DNA of 63,979 bases, the filler included. It is 10 parts of 10 records of this genome, joined end to end, with 100 filler letters (N's around TTAATTAATTAA, not from the genome) between each part and the next. Parts side by side here need not be neighbours in the genome. Positions count along the whole stretch, not along the records: positions 60,948 to 63,979 come from SRR7504441_655; 9 more parts are not named here. One strand, 5' to 3'. Positions 9,763-63,979 of this stretch are shown one piece after another. Both the position numbers and the translations under genes were made by a program. Position 1 is the first letter of the stretch, and the number at the start of each line of letters is the position of its first letter. Below the pieces are notes generated by a model that ran no database searches, was not told the DNA's origin, and saw nothing but the letters and a program-made list of their open reading frames with translations.

Positions 9763-9862
9763 NNNNNNNNNNNNNNNNNNNNNNNNNNNNNNNNNNNNNN
9801 NNNNNNTTAATTAATTAANNNNNNNNNNNNNNNNNNNNNNNNNNNNNNNNNNNNNNNNNNNN
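9763..9862. other. Artificial contig linker N44-TTAATTAATTAA-N44 (also 15412-15511, 21008-21107, 27915-28014, 33806-33905, 37023-37122, 40248-40347, 48530-48629, 60848-60947)
   Basis: An identical 100-nt spacer with stops in all six frames occurs nine times, and genes are cut at these points. Confidence 0.99.
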
Positions 9863-12093: not shown

Positions 12094-15000
12094 TCAGTCA
12101 TCCTCCTCGCAGACGATCTCCTCCTCCATCCCGTCCTCCTCCTCGGCCTCGGGCTCGAACACAGGTTCCATCCCGATGGCAAAGAAGTTGATCTTGTCTG
12201 TGTCGCCCGACTTGATCAGTGCCTTCATTGCCTTAAGCTTGTCCCCGGCCTGGGTGTACTTCTTGCAAGCCAGGTGGTACTGGCCCTGCATCTTGCAGCA
12301 CTTGGCCAGCTTGAACAGCAGGTCCAGCCGCTTGCTGTTGTGTGCCTCGGCCTCAGGCCCGCTGGCCTCGTCCTTCTCTAGCGTCATCATCTCGGCCATC
12401 TGCTCAGTCACCATGATGTTGTGCTGTAGGCACAGATCCATCCCAAGCGTTATCTCTCCTGACTTGATGTACAGCATCACCGCCTTGTCAAACTGCTGGT
12501 GCTCTAGGAAGAAGGAGGCGCACCGCGAGAGCAGCTGCGGCGAGAGTGAGCCGGCATTGGCGTCCATTTCTTCGACCAGCTGCGAGAGCGAAGAGAACAG
12601 TTGGGCTTCAAAGCACAGCTGGAGCGCCCGGGTGGTGTCACCGGCCCGTGAATACAGGTGGACCGCCTTTTCGAACTGCCGGTGCTCCTCAAAGTAGTTG
12701 GCTGCCTCGATCATCGCCTTGGGCTGTGTGGCGCTAGAGGCCAGCCCCATCAGCTCGCCGTCCGCCTCACCGCACCGGCGCGCCACCCTGATCGCGTGGC
12801 TGGCCGAGCCGGTCTTTGCGTACAGCTGGACCGCGTCCTTGAGCTCGCCAGCGGCCTCGAGCTGCTTGGCCAGGTGGTAGATGGCGGCCTTATCATCGGT
12901 GTCCTCGCACAGCTGGAGCGCGGCTGGGAACTCGGCCTCAAAGCACATGATCCGCACCTTGGCCAGGTTGTTGTGCGAGCGGGTGTACGCCTCGAGCGCC
13001 GGGCCAAACTGGCTGGTCGACTCGCAGTACTGGCCCCACCAGTTGTGCAGCTCTGGCTCATCCTTGCGCTGGATGTACTGCTCGAGCTGCTGGAGCATCC
13101 CACGCGAGTGCAGCATCCTAGGCACCTCCCTGCAGTGCGCCTGCGCCCGCTCGTACGCCTCTATCGCGGCTGGGATGTCCCCGGTGCTCTCTAGGTACTT
13201 GGCCTGGTTAAAATGCACCGTCTGCAGCGCAATCCGCTCGTGCTTTTGCACCAGCTCAATCGCTTGGTCCCACGCACCCTGCGCCTGCAGCAGCTCCGCC
13301 AGCAGGTCGTAACTGCCCCCGGCTCAGCTTGGCACGGCGCACGGCGCACCGCTTGCACTCCTGGAACAGCCGAGCCGCGTCGCTGTACATGCCCAAGTGG
13401 AGCGCCAACACCCCCACTTGCGCGTCCTGCTCTTTGTGCCGCTTGGCCAGCCGCAGCGCCTGCCGCCCGGTTCACTCGCTCGCACCGGCCGGCCCAGGTG
13501 CGCACCTTGGCGGTCTTGGCGTCGCCCATCTGGCCAACGCATATCTCGGCCACATCGAGCCGCTTGGTCTTGACGCACATGTGGGCCATGTTCTGCCAGA
13601 CCGCCGGCGAGCTGATCTGCTTGACCGCCTGGTACGCCGCGTCCATCTCGCCAATTGTGAGGAAGAATGAGAAGTCGAGCACTGCAGTCCGGCTCTCACG
13701 GTCGATATCCTCCATTCCCTTGAAGTCGCGCATCACCTGCTGGCAGAGCCGCGGCTCGTGCTGGCGGGCGGCCCCCTCCTCCTGCTGGCTGGTCCGTGAG
13801 GAGTAGTAGATCCACGGCACTGCAATCCCGAGCAGCTCGCATGACTTGTCCTCGAGCATAAACGAGTCCTGGAGCACCACAGAGTGCTCGCGCGTGCCCA
13901 CGAACACGCACAGTTCCTCTCGCTCGTCCAGCTCGAGCCCGTCCACCGCGGCCTCCTTCCGGGCGTTTGCGGCTAGGCTGGTCTGGACTGCGAGCAGCCT
14001 GGGCTCGTCCGAGTCCCACCACTGCTTGCTTGGGCAGCGCATCCCAAACTCATGGAACGTCCACTTGTCACCCTCCACATCCAGCACGTACAGCCGCGTG
14101 TCCGGCACAAACAGTCCGTTGGGAAGCTTCATCGACGAGATGACGCTCACCCGCTGGCCAGAGCTGTTTACTCTCACAGACACGACCTCGCCCTTGGGGG
14201 TGCCGGCGGCCGTCGGTGGCGGCGGGTCACCCCCGGGCCCCGCGATCTGCTGCCAGAGGATTTTGTCCCGGTTGAACTCGAACCCAGCCCCAATTGGCTT
14301 GGGCTCCCTCCGGCCCACGTTCCAGAGTCTTATGGTGCCGGTTCTTGAGGAGGCGACCAGGAAGTTCTTGTTGAGGTCGAGCTGACAGACTGCGCCTTGC
14401 TGCTCGGAGAAGCTGACCTGGCTCTTGACCGTCCCGGCCCAGTTGCAGCCCTTGATCACCAGCGGCTCGCCTCGCTCGACCATAAAGAAACCGTCCTCAG
14501 CTGCTGCAAGCGCTATCACGCGCGCCTCAAAGCTGTGGAGCTTGGCCAGCTGGCTGCTCTCACTGTCTGGCCGCTCGTACACCAGCACCTGCTTGCCGTC
14601 CCACAGCACGGTCTGCTTGCCGTTGGTCGACACCCCCTTGACACTGCACTCCGGCCTGAGCACGTCAGGCCTCCCGTGTGGGACAGCCTGCACCAGCAGC
14701 CAGTCTGCAGCCGCCTGCAGGCATGCAAGCCCGCTGCAGACCGCGCTGCACATGACCGACTCGTTCAGCACCGACACCGTCTCCTGGGTGCCCACTGCCA
14801 GCCCACCGCCGCTCCCCCAGGTCAGCTGTTTCACCCCTTCACTCAGTTGCAGCCCTGGCATCGCCTCCCAGTTCTCCGCACCAGCGCCTGCCGTGTCAAA
14901 GATCGCCGGCGCGTATTGCCAAATGAAGATCCGTCCGTCGCGCGAGCCCGCGGCCAGCCGGCCGGACCTGTTGTTGAACGCGGCGGCCACCGCCCTGTCG

Positions 15001-15411
15001 CCGTGCTGGTCAGCGCCCTGGGCCGACATATCAAGCTGGAGCACGTAGTTCTCGCCTTCGTTCAGCTCGTACACCCGGAGCAACGGCTCGTTGGTCACTA
15101 CAACCAGCAGTCCGCTCCCGGCCCAGGTGGCCCCGCTGATCGATCCGTCCAGCCCGATCGACAGCTTGGTCTTGAGTGTCTGCTCCCACCGATCACCTTC
15201 CATCCGCCACTTCCAGAGCATGTTGGCCTTGGTCAGCACTACCACCTCGTCCGCGCTGTCGTGGTACTCGAGCGCCGCCACCGGAGCCTCCACCCCGAAC
15301 GCATCCAGGCAGCCGCTCGAGTCGTTGGCGTACCCTATAGAGCCGGTCCGGCCACCCAGCAGGAACGAGGCGCCGCCGTTGGCCTCAGAATCGGGCAGCG
15401 ACCGGAAGACG
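12094..15411 (-). CDS. IFT140: Intraflagellar transport protein 140 (IFT-A), 5' truncated
   Basis: WD40 region followed by TPR-like region. Hallmarks: FSFFLTIGEMDAAYQAVKQI, WQNMAHMCVKTKRLDVAEIC, EVPRML, QGQYHLACKKYTQAGDKLKAMKALIKSGDTDKI. Introns at 13460-13505 and 13313-13349. Confidence 0.95.
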
Positions 15412-15620
15412 NNNNNNNNNNNNNNNNNNNNNNNNNNNNNNNNNNNNNNNNNNNNTTAATTAATTAANNNNNNNNNNNNNNNNNNNNNNNNNNNNNNNNN
15501 NNNNNNNNNNNCCAGCGCCTGGGTTCAGGGCGGGCCGAGGACGTACCAGCCGGCCCGGTTCGACCCCGCGGAGGCCTCGCCGGGCCACCGCTCGCTGCGC
15601 CTGACGGCCTCTCGCCAGCT

Positions 15621-20868: not shown

Positions 20869-21107
20869 TGTGAACTAAGTACATTCCACGCATACATCTA
20901 AGTCCACGCAATAGCATGGCTACATAGTGGGCTAATACATAATGTTACGTCGGTACTCGTACCCACACTCAGCTACACAGTCGCGGTCCGCAGGTCCAAA
21001 TGGCACCNNNNNNNNNNNNNNNNNNNNNNNNNNNNNNNNNNNNNNNNNNNNTTAATTAATTAANNNNNNNNNNNNNNNNNNNNNNNNNNNNNNNNNNNNN
21101 NNNNNNN

Positions 21108-23942
21108 CAGCAGCAAGCTCGCCCTCGGCTTGCTGCGACGCTTGCGATTTGCCTAACGCCTCATCGCTGTTGACCCGATTCGACGGGTTGAGCTGTTCGA
21201 GCTCAGCCACCAGCAAGGCCGCTCTCTCCTCGGCCTGATCCAGCTGTGCCCTCGCCTCGTCTGCCGCCAATTTGTTCTCTTCCATCTCGAGAAAGTAAAG
21301 CGACTTCCAGCTCCGCTTCTGCTCATCAGCCTCCTGCAGCACCCACACTCACAAACGCGAATCCAACGCTACGAAGGTCTTCGACCCATGGCGGCAAGCA
21401 GCTCTTAGACACACCTGCTGGAACGTGGCTATCCAGCTCTCCTGGCTGTCGTTTTGCCTGTGGGCACAGCTAGTTGCATGTTCCACCAGCTCAGTGACAG
21501 TCTGAAGCAGATAGACGATCTCCCGCTCTCTCTGCTCGCTCTGTCGCGCCAATTGCTCTGTAGTCTCTGTAGCAACCTTCTCAAGGGCCTTGTACTCCAA
21601 AGCCTGCACTCACCAGTCAGCGCCGTGCCCAGACCCATCCTACCTGCTTGCTTGTCTTATCCACTAGCTCCTCGAGCTTCACAATCTCTTGCCGTTCTCT
21701 CTCCGCTTCAATCGCCTGCGCGTCCTTGAGCGAGGTCGCAATCTCCTCCTGGCACTGCTCCAGCAACGTCCTAAGCGACGCGTTCTCCTGGGCGGCCTTA
21801 GCGCTGGAGGCCCGCCACCCGGCGAGCTGCTCTTCCATGTCTTGTTTCTGCTCCTTCAGCGACTCAATCTCCGCAAGGTGTCGCTCTGCAGACTGTCCCG
21901 TCTCGTGCTGCAGGGAAACCAGCTGCTGCCGCAACTCTGACAAGTCCTGCCGGGAGGAGTAAGTGTGCAAGTCGCACCCCTGAGCCAGGATGATACAAAC
22001 AGAAGTTGGGCAGGACGGGGTGTTGCCTGCTCGGCTGTTTCATGCTCCCCTCTGAGAGTGGCCAGCTTGTCCTCGTTCACCTGCGACCCGGTCAGTCAGC
22101 ACCTGTGATATGTCCTGATCAAAAGATCGAACGCAACTAGCTAATGGCCGTGGACGAGTCGTCACCGTGACGCTAATGCGGTGAGCCTGTTCTAAATCCT
22201 CAAGTTGCTCTGCGCTCTCCCTGGCCTCTGCCCTGCTCCTTCCGGGTTAGCATGTGCAACGCCCTGCCGGCCACCTGCACTGCGCCACCTCGCTTCTCAG
22301 CTGCGCAATTGTATCTTCCTGCACACCCTGCCCACGACTCAGGGGACCACAACCGCAAACATAACAACACCTGCAGCGTTGTCTTGTTTTCAAGGCTCTC
22401 AGATAAATCATCAACCGCTCGCTCACTCCGCCCCAACTCCTCGACAAGCGCACCGTTCTGCGCCTCGAGCACGGCCCTGCCCAGGCCTCGCACCCAATCC
22501 AGCCCAAGCAGGCACCGGGACTTCTCCGCCTCTTGCAATGCCTCTGCTGTGCTGCTCCCCAGTCGTCTGCTTTGGCCGAGCTCCGCCTCAAGAGACTCAA
22601 CCTAAAAATAAAATCAGTTCAGGCCAACAGCTCGCCGAGCACTGCTCGTGTTAAGTCGGAGTGTGACCTGTTCGAGGAGTAGCAGCTGCTCGGTGGCTTG
22701 ATCGGTGACTATCTGACTCGCCTGGAGTGCCTGGTATTCGATCACTCAACTGACTAGCTCGCCGCCCACCTGCTGCAGCTGGCCCTTGTGTGCACCGTGC
22801 TCGTGCCGCCTTAACTGTACCTGCCTAATTAGGAACCTGCATAGTGTAACAGGGTGCCTCCTGCTGAGCCAGCATCTGCCCTGCCCGTTGGCATCCCTCT
22901 TCTAGCACCTGAAGCCCGACTCACACCCCCTGATAGCCCTGCCCACCTTCTCCCTCGCCTCCATCGCATGCACTTGCGACCGCAATGCCTCAACCTCCCC
23001 CATTCCCTAACCAACCCTCAGCCCCACCCCCTCGGCCGAACCTCACCGGCTCCTCCAGCTGCAGCCTGAGCTCATCTCTCTCCTTCTGCACCGCCCGCAC
23101 CTCCCGGCCCGCTCGCTCCGTTACCTCCTCCATTCTCTCCAACTCACACTCCAGTGACTGCACCTAACCGACAGCGTGGATCCTCGACCGACCCCTCGCA
23201 GCCACCTGACAGTCCAACCTGTCCAACAGCAGCACGTCCTCCGCCCCCAGCCCGGCCTCCCTCAGCAGCTCCAGCTCGGCCTCCTTCCGCTCCAAACGGG
23301 CCGTCAGCTCTGTCCGTTGGCTCTAGGCACGCCCGTCCGGGAGCCACCTGCTCTCTCAGCCTGCCGCCCGCGCTCCCACAGCTCGATCCGCTCAGCAACC
23401 TGCCACTCATCGCGCCGCGCTGCACAGTCGAGCGCACCTCCGCGGCCAGCCTGTCCAGCAGCTGGCACGCCGCTTCCTGCCGATCGGATCCGTCGAGCAG
23501 CTCCCGCAGCTCCGCGGCGCCCTCGCCAAGACAGCCCCTGCAGGCTTCTCCGACCCGCTCGGCACGCTGTGAGCGCCACAGCCCCGCCGCACCCACTGCC
23601 AGCCCACGCCCTGAGCCCCGGCCACCGCCCATGTACCTGGGCTGACGCAGACACTGTTTTCTGGGTCGGCCGTGCCCCGCTGCCCGGCTGCCGCTGGCTC
23701 TCCAGTCCGGACTTCTCTGTCGAAAGAGAGTACACGTGACCCTGGGGAGTCTGCCCGGCCGCACTGGGCGCAGGCCACGGCCCCGGGCGGGTTGGCCGCC
23801 CCGCAGTGCCCGCAGACGCTCCAGAGATCCATCCGGCCCGCCTGCAACCAGTCTGAGCGGGCAGTCGAGAGCGGCCGGCCACCTGCTCGGCCTGGAGCAG
23901 CAGCAGGTCCAGCCCGCGGCCCGGCGGCCCGGTCGATGCCAT
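21108..23942 (-). CDS. Multi-exon coiled-coil protein with an N-terminal RanBP2-type zinc finger (3' truncated)
   Basis: WSVCGHCGAANPPGAVACAQCG fits W-x-C-x2-C-x3-N-x6-C-x2-C. Downstream exons are E/Q/L-rich heptads with many short GT-AG introns. Confidence 0.6.
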
Positions 23943-27914: not shown

Positions 27915-28014
27915 NNNNNNNNNNNNNNNNNNNNNNNNNNNNNNNNNNNNNNNNNNNNTTAATTAATTAANNNNNNNNNNNNNNNNNNNNNNNNNNNNNN
28001 NNNNNNNNNNNNNN

Positions 28015-33735: not shown

Positions 33736-33964
33736 ATTGATGAGCCTACCGTGTGTGTGCATTCTCCAACTGGCATTTGACTTACAAACCGGTTCATTTG
33801 GCTACNNNNNNNNNNNNNNNNNNNNNNNNNNNNNNNNNNNNNNNNNNNNTTAATTAATTAANNNNNNNNNNNNNNNNNNNNNNNNNNNNNNNNNNNNNNN
33901 NNNNNATCATGGTTGTAGTGCTGAGATGTACAGTACTACTTGTATATAGTCGATGTGATCGGCG

Positions 33965-37022: not shown

Positions 37023-37122
37023 NNNNNNNNNNNNNNNNNNNNNNNNNNNNNNNNNNNNNNNNNNNNTTAATTAATTAANNNNNNNNNNNNNNNNNNNNNN
37101 NNNNNNNNNNNNNNNNNNNNNN

Positions 37123-40247: not shown

Positions 40248-40347
40248 NNNNNNNNNNNNNNNNNNNNNNNNNNNNNNNNNNNNNNNNNNNNTTAATTAAT
40301 TAANNNNNNNNNNNNNNNNNNNNNNNNNNNNNNNNNNNNNNNNNNNN

Positions 40348-48353: not shown

Positions 48354-48845
48354 CTCCTCCTTCCACCCCTCTGCCCCCTGTACAGTCGTACTCGGCCGTT
48401 AGTGTCCGTTGGAGATCACGGCACAAGGGCCACAGCATGGCTGACCTGCTGGCACAACTGAATGAGCACATCCTCGGTGCATGCGTCCGCCGGCTGCCAG
48501 TGCACCCCAGGCCCTTCGCCACCACCGCCNNNNNNNNNNNNNNNNNNNNNNNNNNNNNNNNNNNNNNNNNNNNTTAATTAATTAANNNNNNNNNNNNNNN
48601 NNNNNNNNNNNNNNNNNNNNNNNNNNNNNCGCCCACATGGAGCCCTCCCGCCCAAAGCAATATAGGAGCCTCAATACCAATGAGCCATGAATGTGGGGAA
48701 CAGTTGACACGCGTGGCGCACCAGCCGTGCGTGGGCCACCATGCCTACCGGGTGGTCATGAATGAGTGAATGGTTTATCGTTTCCTCCCCATTGAAGTGT
48801 GTAAGATCACGTTGCAATTATAACGACTTCTGTGACCCCGGGCAG

Positions 48846-60663: not shown

Positions 60664-60996
60664 CGCTGCCCCCAACCGCTCAGCCCGTCAGCACCCAGCA
60701 CCCACCCGGTCGTGCCCGCCGCTGCAGTGGAAAGCTCAACGGAAAGTCTCCAGGGCGGTGCACGACCCAGTGTGCCGGCGCCTGCGAAAGCGGACGCGAA
60801 AGCGGCGGGGGAACCCGCGAGCATGCCCATCCGGCCGTGGCCGACTCNNNNNNNNNNNNNNNNNNNNNNNNNNNNNNNNNNNNNNNNNNNNTTAATTAAT
60901 TAANNNNNNNNNNNNNNNNNNNNNNNNNNNNNNNNNNNNNNNNNNNNCCACAGATTCTAGGGCTCGGCCGCTCTCAGCCACAGATTGTGTGCGCAC

Positions 60997-63966
60997 CGCG
61001 GCGGTGAGGTGGTGAGACATCCTCTCGCAAGCTTCTAGCACCAAAGGAAGCGAGTCGTCGTCGTATTTGGCAATCACTTGAAACGGCCCGAACACCTTAC
61101 CACGCAATCACGCCCGGAGAGAGCGACGCTGGGGCGGACCTCTGTACAGCAGGTGCTGAAATGCTCTTCGGACAGGAGCTGGTCTATAGGCACGAGCACT
61201 GCTGTCGGCTCTATGATGCCGTACTGGGGCGGGACGGTGTGCTCGCCTCCTGCAGCCAGCCTGCTCAGGCAGCACACGCCGGCGGTGCTAGCCACTGTAT
61301 AATTATAAAGTCTATACCCTGTAGCAGTACTATATAGTCTATACCCTGTAGCAGCACTATACAGTCTCTATACACTTTAGCAGCACTATACAGTCTCTAT
61401 ACCCTGTAGCAGCACTATTATATATAATCTACTAGTGACCCACCATTCCACTCTTTCCCTCCAAAAAGCAACTCAGCCCCTGGAATAGCCAGCAGACGCT
61501 CCGTATGTGCCAGCATCTCCTCTGTCGTATGTGACAGCACCGGCCCAATCGTGAGGTCCTCCAACTGCACAATCAAACAGTCAGCGCGACTCGCTTCAGT
61601 CCGTTAAAACCTGCCGCCGGCCAGCCAGCTGTTCAAGCCGAGGAATCAGCCCGGCGTTGTCCCAGTTCTCGTGCATAAACCTAAAAATAGCACAGCGATG
61701 GTCACAATCGCACATAATTGATCAATAAATCGGCACATGATCGACTGGGCCGAGCACTTTTGACCGGAACAGGCGTACGCGTCCTGGTCGCTCACCTGTA
61801 TTCCCTAATCAGGCAGCTGTGACGGCCACTATTCCCTAATCGGGCAGATGTGACGGCCATTATTCCCTAATCAGGCAGCTGTGACAGCCATTATGCCCTA
61901 ATAAGGCAGGCGTGACGGCCATTATTCCCTAATAAGGCAGGTGTGACTGACCCAAGCCACGTAGTCGACATCAGCCACATCAGGACCGAGGATTTTCCAG
62001 TCAAAACCAGCGTCCTCCACTCGCACCTGCCGCCGGCCGCTCTCAGCCACAAATCACGAGCCGCCGAGCGCTCTCAGGCCACAGATCACCTTGCCGTGCG
62101 TGTTGACCGCAAGCATCTCGGCCACCTCCGAGCTGCCAGTGAATTGAATCACCTGTCAGTTAATGTCCGTTAGTGTTAACTCTTGATTAATTAATAATTA
62201 ATCAGATGAGGCACCCTGTAATCTGCTCGCTCTATCACTGAGCTTGTAACAGCTCCTGTCGCGTTGAGCACCTGCAGCAGGTTGAAATTAATTAATAAAT
62301 AAATATTAATCGGGGCACGTCCATGTCGGAGCTCGGCATCCCGCAGTGGATAAGAAGCCGCACCTGCGCCACGCGAAATATGTTAACACGCTTGCCTTAT
62401 TCGGACGCGCTGTTAAGATACCAGCTGCTCCATCACGACAGTCACGTTGATCGCACTCTTGAGCATCGGCTTGTTTCCCATCATAAGCGCGCCGAGCAGC
62501 TGAGCATATGTTAACACGCTTGCCTTATTAGGCAGCGCTGTTAACATACCTGGAGTGTCGGGATTTCAAGGGGGAAGTTGAAAGGCGACACTATGGCAAC
62601 TGGCCCGAAGGGCCACCTGTCGCATTGAGTGATCACTCCCGCAACGGAAATCTATTTTTAGGATGGCATTACATAGGAGCTACTACTACTACTGCTATAA
62701 TGAGTGTTAATTAGTATATACTATCAAGTAGTTAGTCTATATAGTGTTATTACCTGTAGTTTGTGGCCATCTGACCGGCGTGATCTCCAGGCACGTTCGC
62801 TCCACCGGCGTTGAACCTGCTCCATCTAGTCAGCTGTGCCGTTACAGACACTCCTAGCGCACGCTGCTGTGCATCAACGGCAGTATTAATCATATAAATA
62901 TGATTCTATAAATAACATCGTGACTTGCCTCGGGTTGTCTCCACCGAAATTTTTCAGAAAATCCGCTGTCACCTGAACAAATCAAATCAGATCGCACCGC
63001 ACACTGCAGCCAGTTGCCGGTTAACGGATTTCCGTTGGGATAACGGTAACGGACTAATCGGGCGGTGCACGCACCTTGGTCTCGTACCAGGCTTGAAAGT
63101 AGCTCTTGGGCATCACCTGAGTCGATTCGAATTCAAATCCGACGGTTGGCCGGGCCAGCCACCCGCGCAATCAGGCAGGCGAAGAAGTCCATCACCTGTC
63201 AGTTGGGCTTAACTCTATTTTAATTCAATTCATCTCGCCTCGGGCTTGGCGAGCTCGTTCCCAGCTGCGTGGCAAATCTCGCCGTATGTGACGTACCTTC
63301 AACGGACAAATTAACGGCAAATCGGCTCACACCAGAGCAGTCAGTTACACTCATCCGCCAGCCGAGCGCCACAGCAGCCGACTATTCAAATTCAATTCGA
63401 ATTCAAATCAAATTCACAACACCAGCACTCACCGCTCCGGCTTGTACAGCGGGTTGTGCATACCGTACTTGGGCACGGCCTGGCCGTTAACTTCCGTTGG
63501 ATTTAACGGAATCCAACGGCACCTGCGCCGACCGGACGAAAGCGTCCAGTTCGTCGCCTCTGGTGTCGGGGACCAGGCAAAACTCCTCCCCTGGCCAACC
63601 TCGGCGGCTGGGGCCAACGGCAATACCGTTGAGCGGATCCAACACGCGGAACTGCTGCGCCGTGTCGGTCCAGCGACCATCCACCAGGTTGAGCACCTGT
63701 TGGTTGCTCAACGGACTTCCAACGGCAGCCGAGCCCCCTCAGGCCGGCCAACAGGCAACCGGCCCCCACCCCCCTTAGATGGCACCTTGTGCGGAGAACC
63801 GGCCGACATTTCCGTTGGATTGACTGTTGCCCAGCTCGGGGTGGCCACCTGCCGCCCGATCAGGCAACTGTGACGTCCCGGGCCCGACCGTTGCGGGGAA
63901 GCCGTCGCCCGGTGCCGCCCGTCGGCTGAAGGCTCGGGCGCCGCGGAGAGGAGCGGCGCGCCACAT
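60997..63966 (-). CDS. ALDH12: ALDH12-type delta-1-pyrroline-5-carboxylate (glutamate semialdehyde) dehydrogenase, mitochondrial; 21 exons, 3' truncated
   Basis: Manual splicing of 21 exons (33-121 nt, 1410 nt total) gives one open frame. It reads transit peptide MWRAAPLRGARAFSR, then LDPLNGE, HNPLYKPERY, RWPFGPVAIVSPFNFPLEIP, FTGSS, VEDAGFDWKILGPD, DQDAYACSGQKCSAQS (catalytic Cys), EVFGPFQ and ERMSHHLTAA. Confidence 0.95.
61310..61420. repeat. Tandem repeat, 27-29 nt unit x4 (TCTATACCCTGTAGCAGCACTATACAG), inside ALDH12 intron 19
   Basis: Read directly from the sequence. Confidence 0.9.
61799..61947. repeat. Tandem repeat, 31-nt unit x~5 (TATTCCCTAATCAGGCAGCTGTGACGGCCAT), filling ALDH12 intron 16
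   Basis: Read directly from the sequence. The array makes up nearly the whole 156-nt intron (61796-61951). Confidence 0.92.
62364..62549 (-). repeat. Pair of near-identical palindromic introns (62500-62549 and 62364-62421), introner-like
   Basis: 40 of the first 44 nt from the GT donor are identical. Intron 11 has a 10-bp terminal inverted repeat TATGTTAACA...TGTTAACATA. Confidence 0.85.
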
Positions 63967-63979
63967 TTCCGTTAGCTGC

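Follow-up and report, generated by a model that had tools for sequence, protein, structure and literature searches.

An intron duplication, probably small and local, in an ALDH12-type gene, with one copy almost wholly a hairpin

The origin of new spliceosomal introns is still argued, and a locus at which a single intron is clearly the copied unit shows what it is that gets copied. The locus described here lies on the minus strand of one contig, at the end of a window of 63,979 nucleotides (about 64 kb in total) that consists of ten separate contigs artificially joined; all positions given below count along this window. The contig carries part of an ALDH12-type gene, delta-1-pyrroline-5-carboxylate dehydrogenase-like, and two neighbouring introns of this gene, designated copy A and copy B, resemble one another far beyond chance. 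A first reading made from the letters only, referred to here as the sequence-only reading, had taken the two introns for copies of one hairpin element with terminal inverted repeats (TIRs) and had suggested that they belong to a family of very small (~45-nt) introners, short elements that create spliceosomal introns. The locus thus raises the questions of which unit was copied, by what route, and whether the pair is part of a family. The answer reached here is an intron duplication, probably small and local, with two copies found within the window; a mobile intron family is not demonstrated. The pair adds one more case to an already known kind of event: same-gene intron duplication and hairpin introners both have precedents in the literature (PMC3609843, PMC7789003).

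The features of the locus are listed below. Introns are numbered from the first exon that aligns to homologues, and introns 9 and 10 correspond to introns 11 and 12 of the sequence-only reading.

60948..63979, minus strand: host contig of the intron pair, part of an ALDH12-type gene that runs off both ends
62550..62616, minus strand: exon upstream of copy A, which ends at the Q of a PLEIPxLQ motif
62500..62549, minus strand: copy A (intron 9), 50 nt, GT–AG, phase 0, 44% GC
62539..62548, minus strand: left arm of the outer stem of copy A, 10 bp, from the second base of the GT donor
62507..62516, minus strand: right arm of the outer stem of copy A, 10 bp, containing TTAAC
62422..62499, minus strand: exon between copies A and B, 78 nt or 26 codons, a conserved ALDH12 segment that is not duplicated (tblastn with P0001 and P0005)
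62364..62421, minus strand: copy B (intron 10), 58 nt, GT–AG, phase 0, 50% GC
62319..62363, minus strand: exon downstream of copy B, placed by homologue alignment and the gene model

The two intron sequences quoted in the sequence-only reading stand exactly at minus-strand positions 62549–62500 and 62421–62364, and the identity that it reported for the first columns of their alignment, 40 of 44, was reproduced with MAFFT. These columns are followed by an 8-nt indel and then by five identities in six positions, and altogether 45 of the 50 positions of copy A are invariant. Relative to copy A, copy B displays four substitutions in the 5′ arm (intron positions 5, 16, 17 and 20), an 8-nt insertion before the tail and one substitution in the tail. 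All four core substitutions fall within the first 20 nt of the shared core, and its remaining 24 nt, on the 3′ side, are identical. Self-BLAST of the whole window at E < 1e-3 returned the intron pair as the sole dispersed repeat (E 1.7e-10), the two other rows being tandem arrays, and a degenerate 39-nt pattern occurs at exactly two sites in the window, a count attained in none of 100 dinucleotide shuffles.

The alignment of the pair extends one base past the 5′ border (a G at −1) and not at all past the 3′ border. The flanking exons are indeed unrelated, as had been proposed: similarity ends at the intron borders, and the exons align to different, consecutive parts of ALDH12. The pair consequently displays two features by which introners are recognized, namely similarity that reaches both borders without going beyond them, and host positions outside paralogous gene regions. 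The two introns, 128 nt apart in one gene, are paralogous and of common origin, and the copied unit is the whole intron, from the first G to the acceptor, with no exon.

The gene model bears on whether both stretches are removed from the transcript. Four homologues, retrieved with a 42-residue exon, align piecewise along the contig and provided the exon borders. The resulting model comprises 19 mapped exons, 18 complete introns and 1269 coding bases; all 18 introns are GT–AG or GC–AG, and the frame joined after their removal consists of 423 codons with zero stops. Over 358 residues, with two gaps, the spliced frame and P0003 share 68% identity, and P0003 matches PDB 6D97, ‘Aldehyde dehydrogenase 12’, with an E value of 6e-188. 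Taken by itself, the exon upstream of copy A gives a weak Aldedh match (E 0.0013, under the curated cut-off). Homologues continue uninterrupted across the junctions of both intron 9 and intron 10. As both intron stretches carry stops and their lengths are not multiples of three, their removal is required, and removing the two restores the open ALDH12 frame. Splicing of both introns is predicted from their GT–AG ends and from this open homologous frame.

Some further features of the splice borders were observed. GC–AG ends occur in introns 4 and 7 (63196–63238 and 62817–62928, minus strand). Many exon–intron borders of the gene read AG/GT...AG/GT, and at 14 of the 18 introns (60997–63696, minus strand) the downstream exon begins with GT, often as GTG (valine), even where homologues differ. 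Borders of this type could represent a preferred insertion site or a duplicated target.

Copy A is almost entirely a hairpin. The fold described in the sequence-only reading was confirmed: a perfect 10-bp outer stem starts within the GT donor and is accompanied by inner stems. The outer stem pairs intron positions 2–11 with 34–43 and corresponds to a perfect hairpin at 62507–62548 with a stem of 10 and a loop of 22. Folded as RNA, copy A attains a minimum free energy of −24.0 kcal/mol (z −6.0), which none of 200 shuffles equalled; folded as DNA, it scores z −6.2 on the minus strand and z −6.05 on the plus strand. The 10-bp perfect arms provide copy A with the terminal inverted repeats that characterize TIR elements and miniature inverted-repeat transposable elements (MITEs). 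In a mirtron, a hairpin fills an intron and yields small RNAs; the hairpin of copy A extends, near-perfectly, across positions 1–44 and leaves a 6-nt 3′ tail that ends in the acceptor. The TTAAC of the right arm is a possible branch site. An Rfam search of the contig with E values up to 1 produced zero matches.

The RNA fold of copy B is not significant (−13.7 kcal/mol, z −0.35; 64 of 200 shuffles equally good), and its longest perfect stem measures 6 bp. The hairpin has been lost because all four core substitutions hit bases that are paired in the 5′ arm of copy A, a distribution that argues for a palindromic ancestor from which copy B has decayed. The same structure bears on whether a mobile element landed in introns that were already present. 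With the palindrome removed, 10 nt of copy A and 18 nt of copy B would remain, whereas the shortest introns in this assembly are 36–37 nt long; the element thus cannot have inserted into introns that already existed, and intron and element are one thing.

The proposal of an introner family held only in part. Common origin, whole-intron similarity ending at the borders and the real TIRs of one copy speak for it; the family itself is not supported, just two copies having been found. Local alignment of the two introns, judged against shuffled queries, gave no match above chance for either in the other 60.8 kb of the window. The best outside scores were 23 for copy A and 22 for copy B, set against shuffle means of 23.1 and 24.3, and were equalled by 60 and 96 of 100 shuffled queries, respectively. 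A candidate third copy, a 14/15 match at 22819–22833, was rejected because it scores no better than shuffled queries. A TIR-based pattern fitting both copies had no match in viral contigs, nor in a collection of metagenome contigs; the window’s own locus is also absent from the latter, so this blank says nothing about copy number. The core pattern was likewise found in none of 80 fetched loci of ALDH12 relatives. In all the sequence examined, near-identical introns are confined to one gene, and any family may be small or local.

The age of the two intron positions can be approached through these relatives, which are the best 80 of 454 confirmed matches from a metagenome scan whose ranking favours uninterrupted matches. 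None is close: the closest shares at least 162 of 243 compared residues, a figure that is an underestimate. The sequence-only reading had named antiquity of both positions, together with a restriction to two copies, as the situation that would point to local gene conversion instead; such antiquity is unsupported, since none of the 80 loci, all of them distant, has an intron at either position. As 76 of the loci are uninterrupted, they are hardly informative on close relatives. Four of the 80 (L014, L048 = L049, L067) have an intron at another place in the gene, and none of these has one at either position. The intron of L048/L049 and L067 was considered as a shared position and rejected, as it lies two codons upstream of intron 6. 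In two metagenome contigs of run X1 the end of the upstream exon continues straight into sequence resembling the next exon. P0004 and P0006 provided no information on intron positions. Two metagenome runs, with small shares, were compared with the window, and neither covers the two introns.

The pair is the extreme of a wider pattern in the gene. Of 153 intron pairs, nine reach z ≥ 4, with copies A and B leading at z 22.4; for eight of the 12 short introns, at most three of 200 shuffles do as well as the intron itself against the rest of the contig. When copies A and B are included, the resemblance between adjacent introns was attained in 72 of 5000 permutations. Shared modules are found between intron 13 and the truncated last intron (18/18, tandem units) and between introns 3 and 5 (15/15). 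Intron 14 consists largely of a repeated unit that holds a short match to copy A: 17 of 18 positions match the copy A core in inverted orientation, with a score of 31 that none of 200 shuffles reached, and the two form a pair with z 8.2. Hairpins recur as well. Intron 2 (63522–63480, 43 nt, minus strand) harbours an unrelated strong hairpin (z −4.7 to −5.5) with a CCGTTGG/CCAACGG repeat, and three of the four perfect stems of at least 10 bp in the window lie in introns of the ALDH12 contig. The sites of the repeated unit are the following.

61796..61951, minus strand: intron 14, the 31-nt unit repeated 4.8 times in tandem
63859..63875, minus strand: weak match to the 31-nt unit (16/17, E 0.017) in the 5′ region of the gene

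Tandem repeats with a period of about 29–31 nt were observed in four introns altogether (62027–62089, 61796–61951, 61311–61418 and 60948–60996, minus strand). Several of the tandem units begin with GT, and the end of the contig falls within a repeat of this kind. The words CCGTT and AACGG gave the impression of being common in the gene, both in its introns and in its 5′ region. They are also present in the arms of the sole perfect 10-bp hairpin outside the ALDH12 contig (18632–18681), which is located inside a 955-codon open frame without a Pfam match.

The best reading of these observations, with a probability of about 0.5, is same-gene intron copying by a locally acting introner-like hairpin element. 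One whole short intron was duplicated within the gene, its two sites being separated by 78 coding bases. The ancestral intron would have been a hairpin whose 5′ arm began inside the donor, a structure retained by copy A and decayed in copy B, and copy A would be the source copy. The route most likely operated at the DNA level, by way of a small foldback or TIR-bearing introner-like element that carried its own splice signals and may have re-inserted nearby. This route is favoured because the palindrome is the dominant feature, is equally strong in DNA and RNA, and has counterparts in the other hairpin introns of the gene. A bolder version is conceivable, although it must be regarded as rather improbable: a new mode of intron gain in which ultra-short (36–63 nt) hairpin introns spawn copies and fragments at nearby sites of the same gene, until it carries about one intron per 70 coding bases next to genes that remain poor in introns. 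In this version the hairpin of copy A, by pairing the donor with the presumed branch region, could serve both the copying and the splicing of such short introns, or could yield a mirtron-like small RNA.

A number of points weigh against local copying by such an element. There is no clear target-site duplication (TSD), as the sequence-only reading had itself acknowledged: a TA stands on both sides of the palindrome in both copies and is indistinguishable from an extension of the palindrome, and no direct repeat longer than TA is shared. A transposase with matching ends had been suggested as something to look for; no transposase domain was detected in 49 long open reading frames of the window scanned against Pfam, in what is a 64-kb sample. 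Unlike a plain TIR transposon, the copied unit extends beyond the inverted repeat into a 3′ tail, and the splicing of both introns is predicted from the reading frame alone. With only two copies in the data, DNA and RNA routes are not separable, and the term ‘local’ refers to a small sample of about 64 kb in ten joined contigs. When copies A and B are left out, the resemblance between adjacent introns is not significant (604 of 5000 permutations). The shuffles used for the modules and for the outside copies preserve base content only, so that low-complexity or AT-rich runs and shared splice signals inflate the weaker module matches.

Three other accounts compete with local copying. The two introns could belong to an introner family dispersed across the whole genome. 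Its unit would be a tiny MITE-like element, equipped with 10-bp TIRs and mobilized by a transposase encoded elsewhere, that gives rise to an intron at any exonic site of insertion; the two copies would be adjacent by chance. Whole-intron similarity ending at the borders, the perfect 10-bp inverted repeats of copy A, the extreme intron density of the host gene and the lack of an intron at either position in the available, distant relatives are all in keeping with this account, and the introner families on record, mostly from aquatic protists, have median lengths that can be as low as 30 nt and copy numbers from 5 to over 2000 (PMC9860276). Two copies only 128 nt apart in one gene would, however, be rare under random dispersal, and the other 60.8 kb of the window contain no further copy. 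Neither a visible TSD nor a transposase among the 49 open reading frames lends it support, the available data fall short of the minimum of four introns that has been set for a family (PMC9860276), and other genes of the window are intron-poor, IFT140 for example having two short GC-rich introns. A dispersed family is accordingly judged unlikely. Somewhat less credit is given to an RNA route, in which an excised intron was reverse-spliced into the same transcript and reverse-transcribed, the resulting cDNA then being recombined into the gene. It would explain why the unit runs exactly from donor to acceptor with the tail included and why both sites are in phase 0 of one transcript, and it is among the explanations offered for fungal same-gene intron duplicates (PMC3609843). 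A cDNA tract should nevertheless erase neighbouring introns, yet the new site still has an intron on either side, at a distance of 78 nt upstream and of 45 nt downstream; the recombined tract would need to be tiny or to derive from unspliced RNA. The route furthermore offers no reason for a near-palindromic source or for the other, unrelated hairpin introns of the gene.

The remaining account, less probable still, holds that both positions are old and that the two sequences were homogenized only afterwards, either through gene conversion or through break repair with the adjacent intron as template. Break-repair models of intron gain exist, and the two sites are just 128 nt apart. The distribution of differences, with 24 identical nucleotides on the 3′ side and all four substitutions among the 20 on the 5′ side, has a probability of about 0.04 by chance (hypergeometric, hand calculation) and would fit a recent short tract; a constrained branch region in the 3′ half would explain the uneven substitutions equally well. 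Conversion must begin from some existing similarity, which a pair of unrelated 50-nt introns set among unrelated exons does not offer. The tract would, in addition, have to end exactly at both intron borders. None of the 80 fetched relatives, including the four with an intron elsewhere, carries either intron, and the two contigs of run X1 run from exon to exon.

Local copying by a hairpin element may be set beside several known systems. Fungal same-gene intron duplications (Collemare et al. 2013, PMC3609843) involve near-identical introns that occur only within one gene and number few per genome; roughly half of them show no duplication of the flanking exons and were read as intron transposition within the transcript. 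Copies A and B share with these cases the near-identity of introns without duplication of flanking exons. They differ in that the fungal introns are of ordinary length and no hairpin is stressed for this class, whereas the introns described here are about 50 nt long and almost all hairpin in copy A, belong to a GC-rich marine protist and reside in a gene with 18 introns in 1269 coding bases. Introners are called by similarity that spans the whole intron and ends at its borders, and a family has to have four or more such members (Gozashti et al. 2022, PMC9860276). In aquatic protists such as Micromonas and Aureococcus they are reported in 5 to thousands of copies in unrelated genes, many with TIRs and many with TSDs (PMC3879977, PMC9860276). 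Whole-intron similarity, TIRs, small size (families reach down to a median of 30 nt in PMC9860276) and a marine protist host are points of likeness; the differences are that two copies are seen here, in one gene, with no clear TSD.

The introner elements of Amoebophrya are characterized by inverted repeats of 8–20 nt that pair the 5′ end with the 3′ part of the intron (Farhat et al. 2021, PMC7789003). That account also describes short direct repeats that overlap the intron borders and predicts that the hairpin draws the ends of the exons towards each other; few elements could be placed in MITE families (PMC7789003). The 10-nt inverted repeat of copy A is within the 8–20 nt range. In contrast, the Amoebophrya elements mostly have non-canonical splice sites and average 120–240 nt (PMC7789003), while the introns of the ALDH12-type gene are GT–AG or GC–AG and the two copies measure 50 and 58 nt. 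The internally symmetrical (stw)introns of Hypoxylaceae proliferate, bear TIRs and insert seamlessly at new positions without flanking duplications, symmetry being suspected to play a part in copying (PMC8469720). An analogous seamless copying of a TIR-bearing intron without clear flanking duplication is seen here; the fungal examples differ by inverted repeats of 45–55 nt, a nested twin intron, scores of copies and fungal hosts (PMC8469720). Finally, the BOC1 introns of Mamiellales are shorter than 75 nt, have a GC content below 43%, are mostly GT–AG and are described as singletons without a common fold (Verhelst et al. 2013, PMC3879977; PMC3491373). In both situations individual housekeeping genes are crowded with very short introns, within a region that is lower in GC than the GC-rich genome around it (PMC3879977, PMC3491373). 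An early assignment of the locus to a Mamiellales outlier chromosome was not retained. The lengths of copies A and B, 50 and 58 nt, fit this class; their GC contents of 44% and 50% do not, and the two are mutually similar, not singletons.

The value of the locus resides in the clarity of the copied unit: a source-like copy A that is almost wholly a hairpin starting inside the donor, in a gene with an exceptional intron load and with shared modules and hairpins. If the full genome held more copies, these would rank among the smallest TIR-bearing introners; if it held no more, the pair would be a clean same-gene intron duplication in a host that is neither a fungus nor a nematode. As both phenomena are already on record, the gain would be modest in either case.

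The remainder of the window provides the setting. Nine identical linkers, each formed by two 44-N runs flanking a 12-base all-frame stop spacer, separate the contigs at the following positions.

9763–9862, 15412–15511, 21008–21107, 27915–28014 and 33806–33905: linkers
37023–37122, 40248–40347, 48530–48629 and 60848–60947: remaining linkers

As the ten contigs were joined artificially, features on different stretches are without physical linkage. A metagenome contig of 161 nt is identical to 61119–61279 and may derive from the very sample that yielded the window. The host is described as a GC-rich marine protist. Of the protein searches aimed at its lineage, one in a sequence atlas returned nothing narrower than broad aminopeptidase clusters, and one with IFT140 returned two hits of 63–66% identity. 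An IFT140 gene is located at 12940–15410 on the minus strand and consists of long exons in its aligned part, which contains only two introns, both short (about 37–43 nt) and GC-rich, in contrast to the intron-dense ALDH12-type gene. The presence of an IFT140 gene indicates that the organism, or at least the bin, is flagellated.

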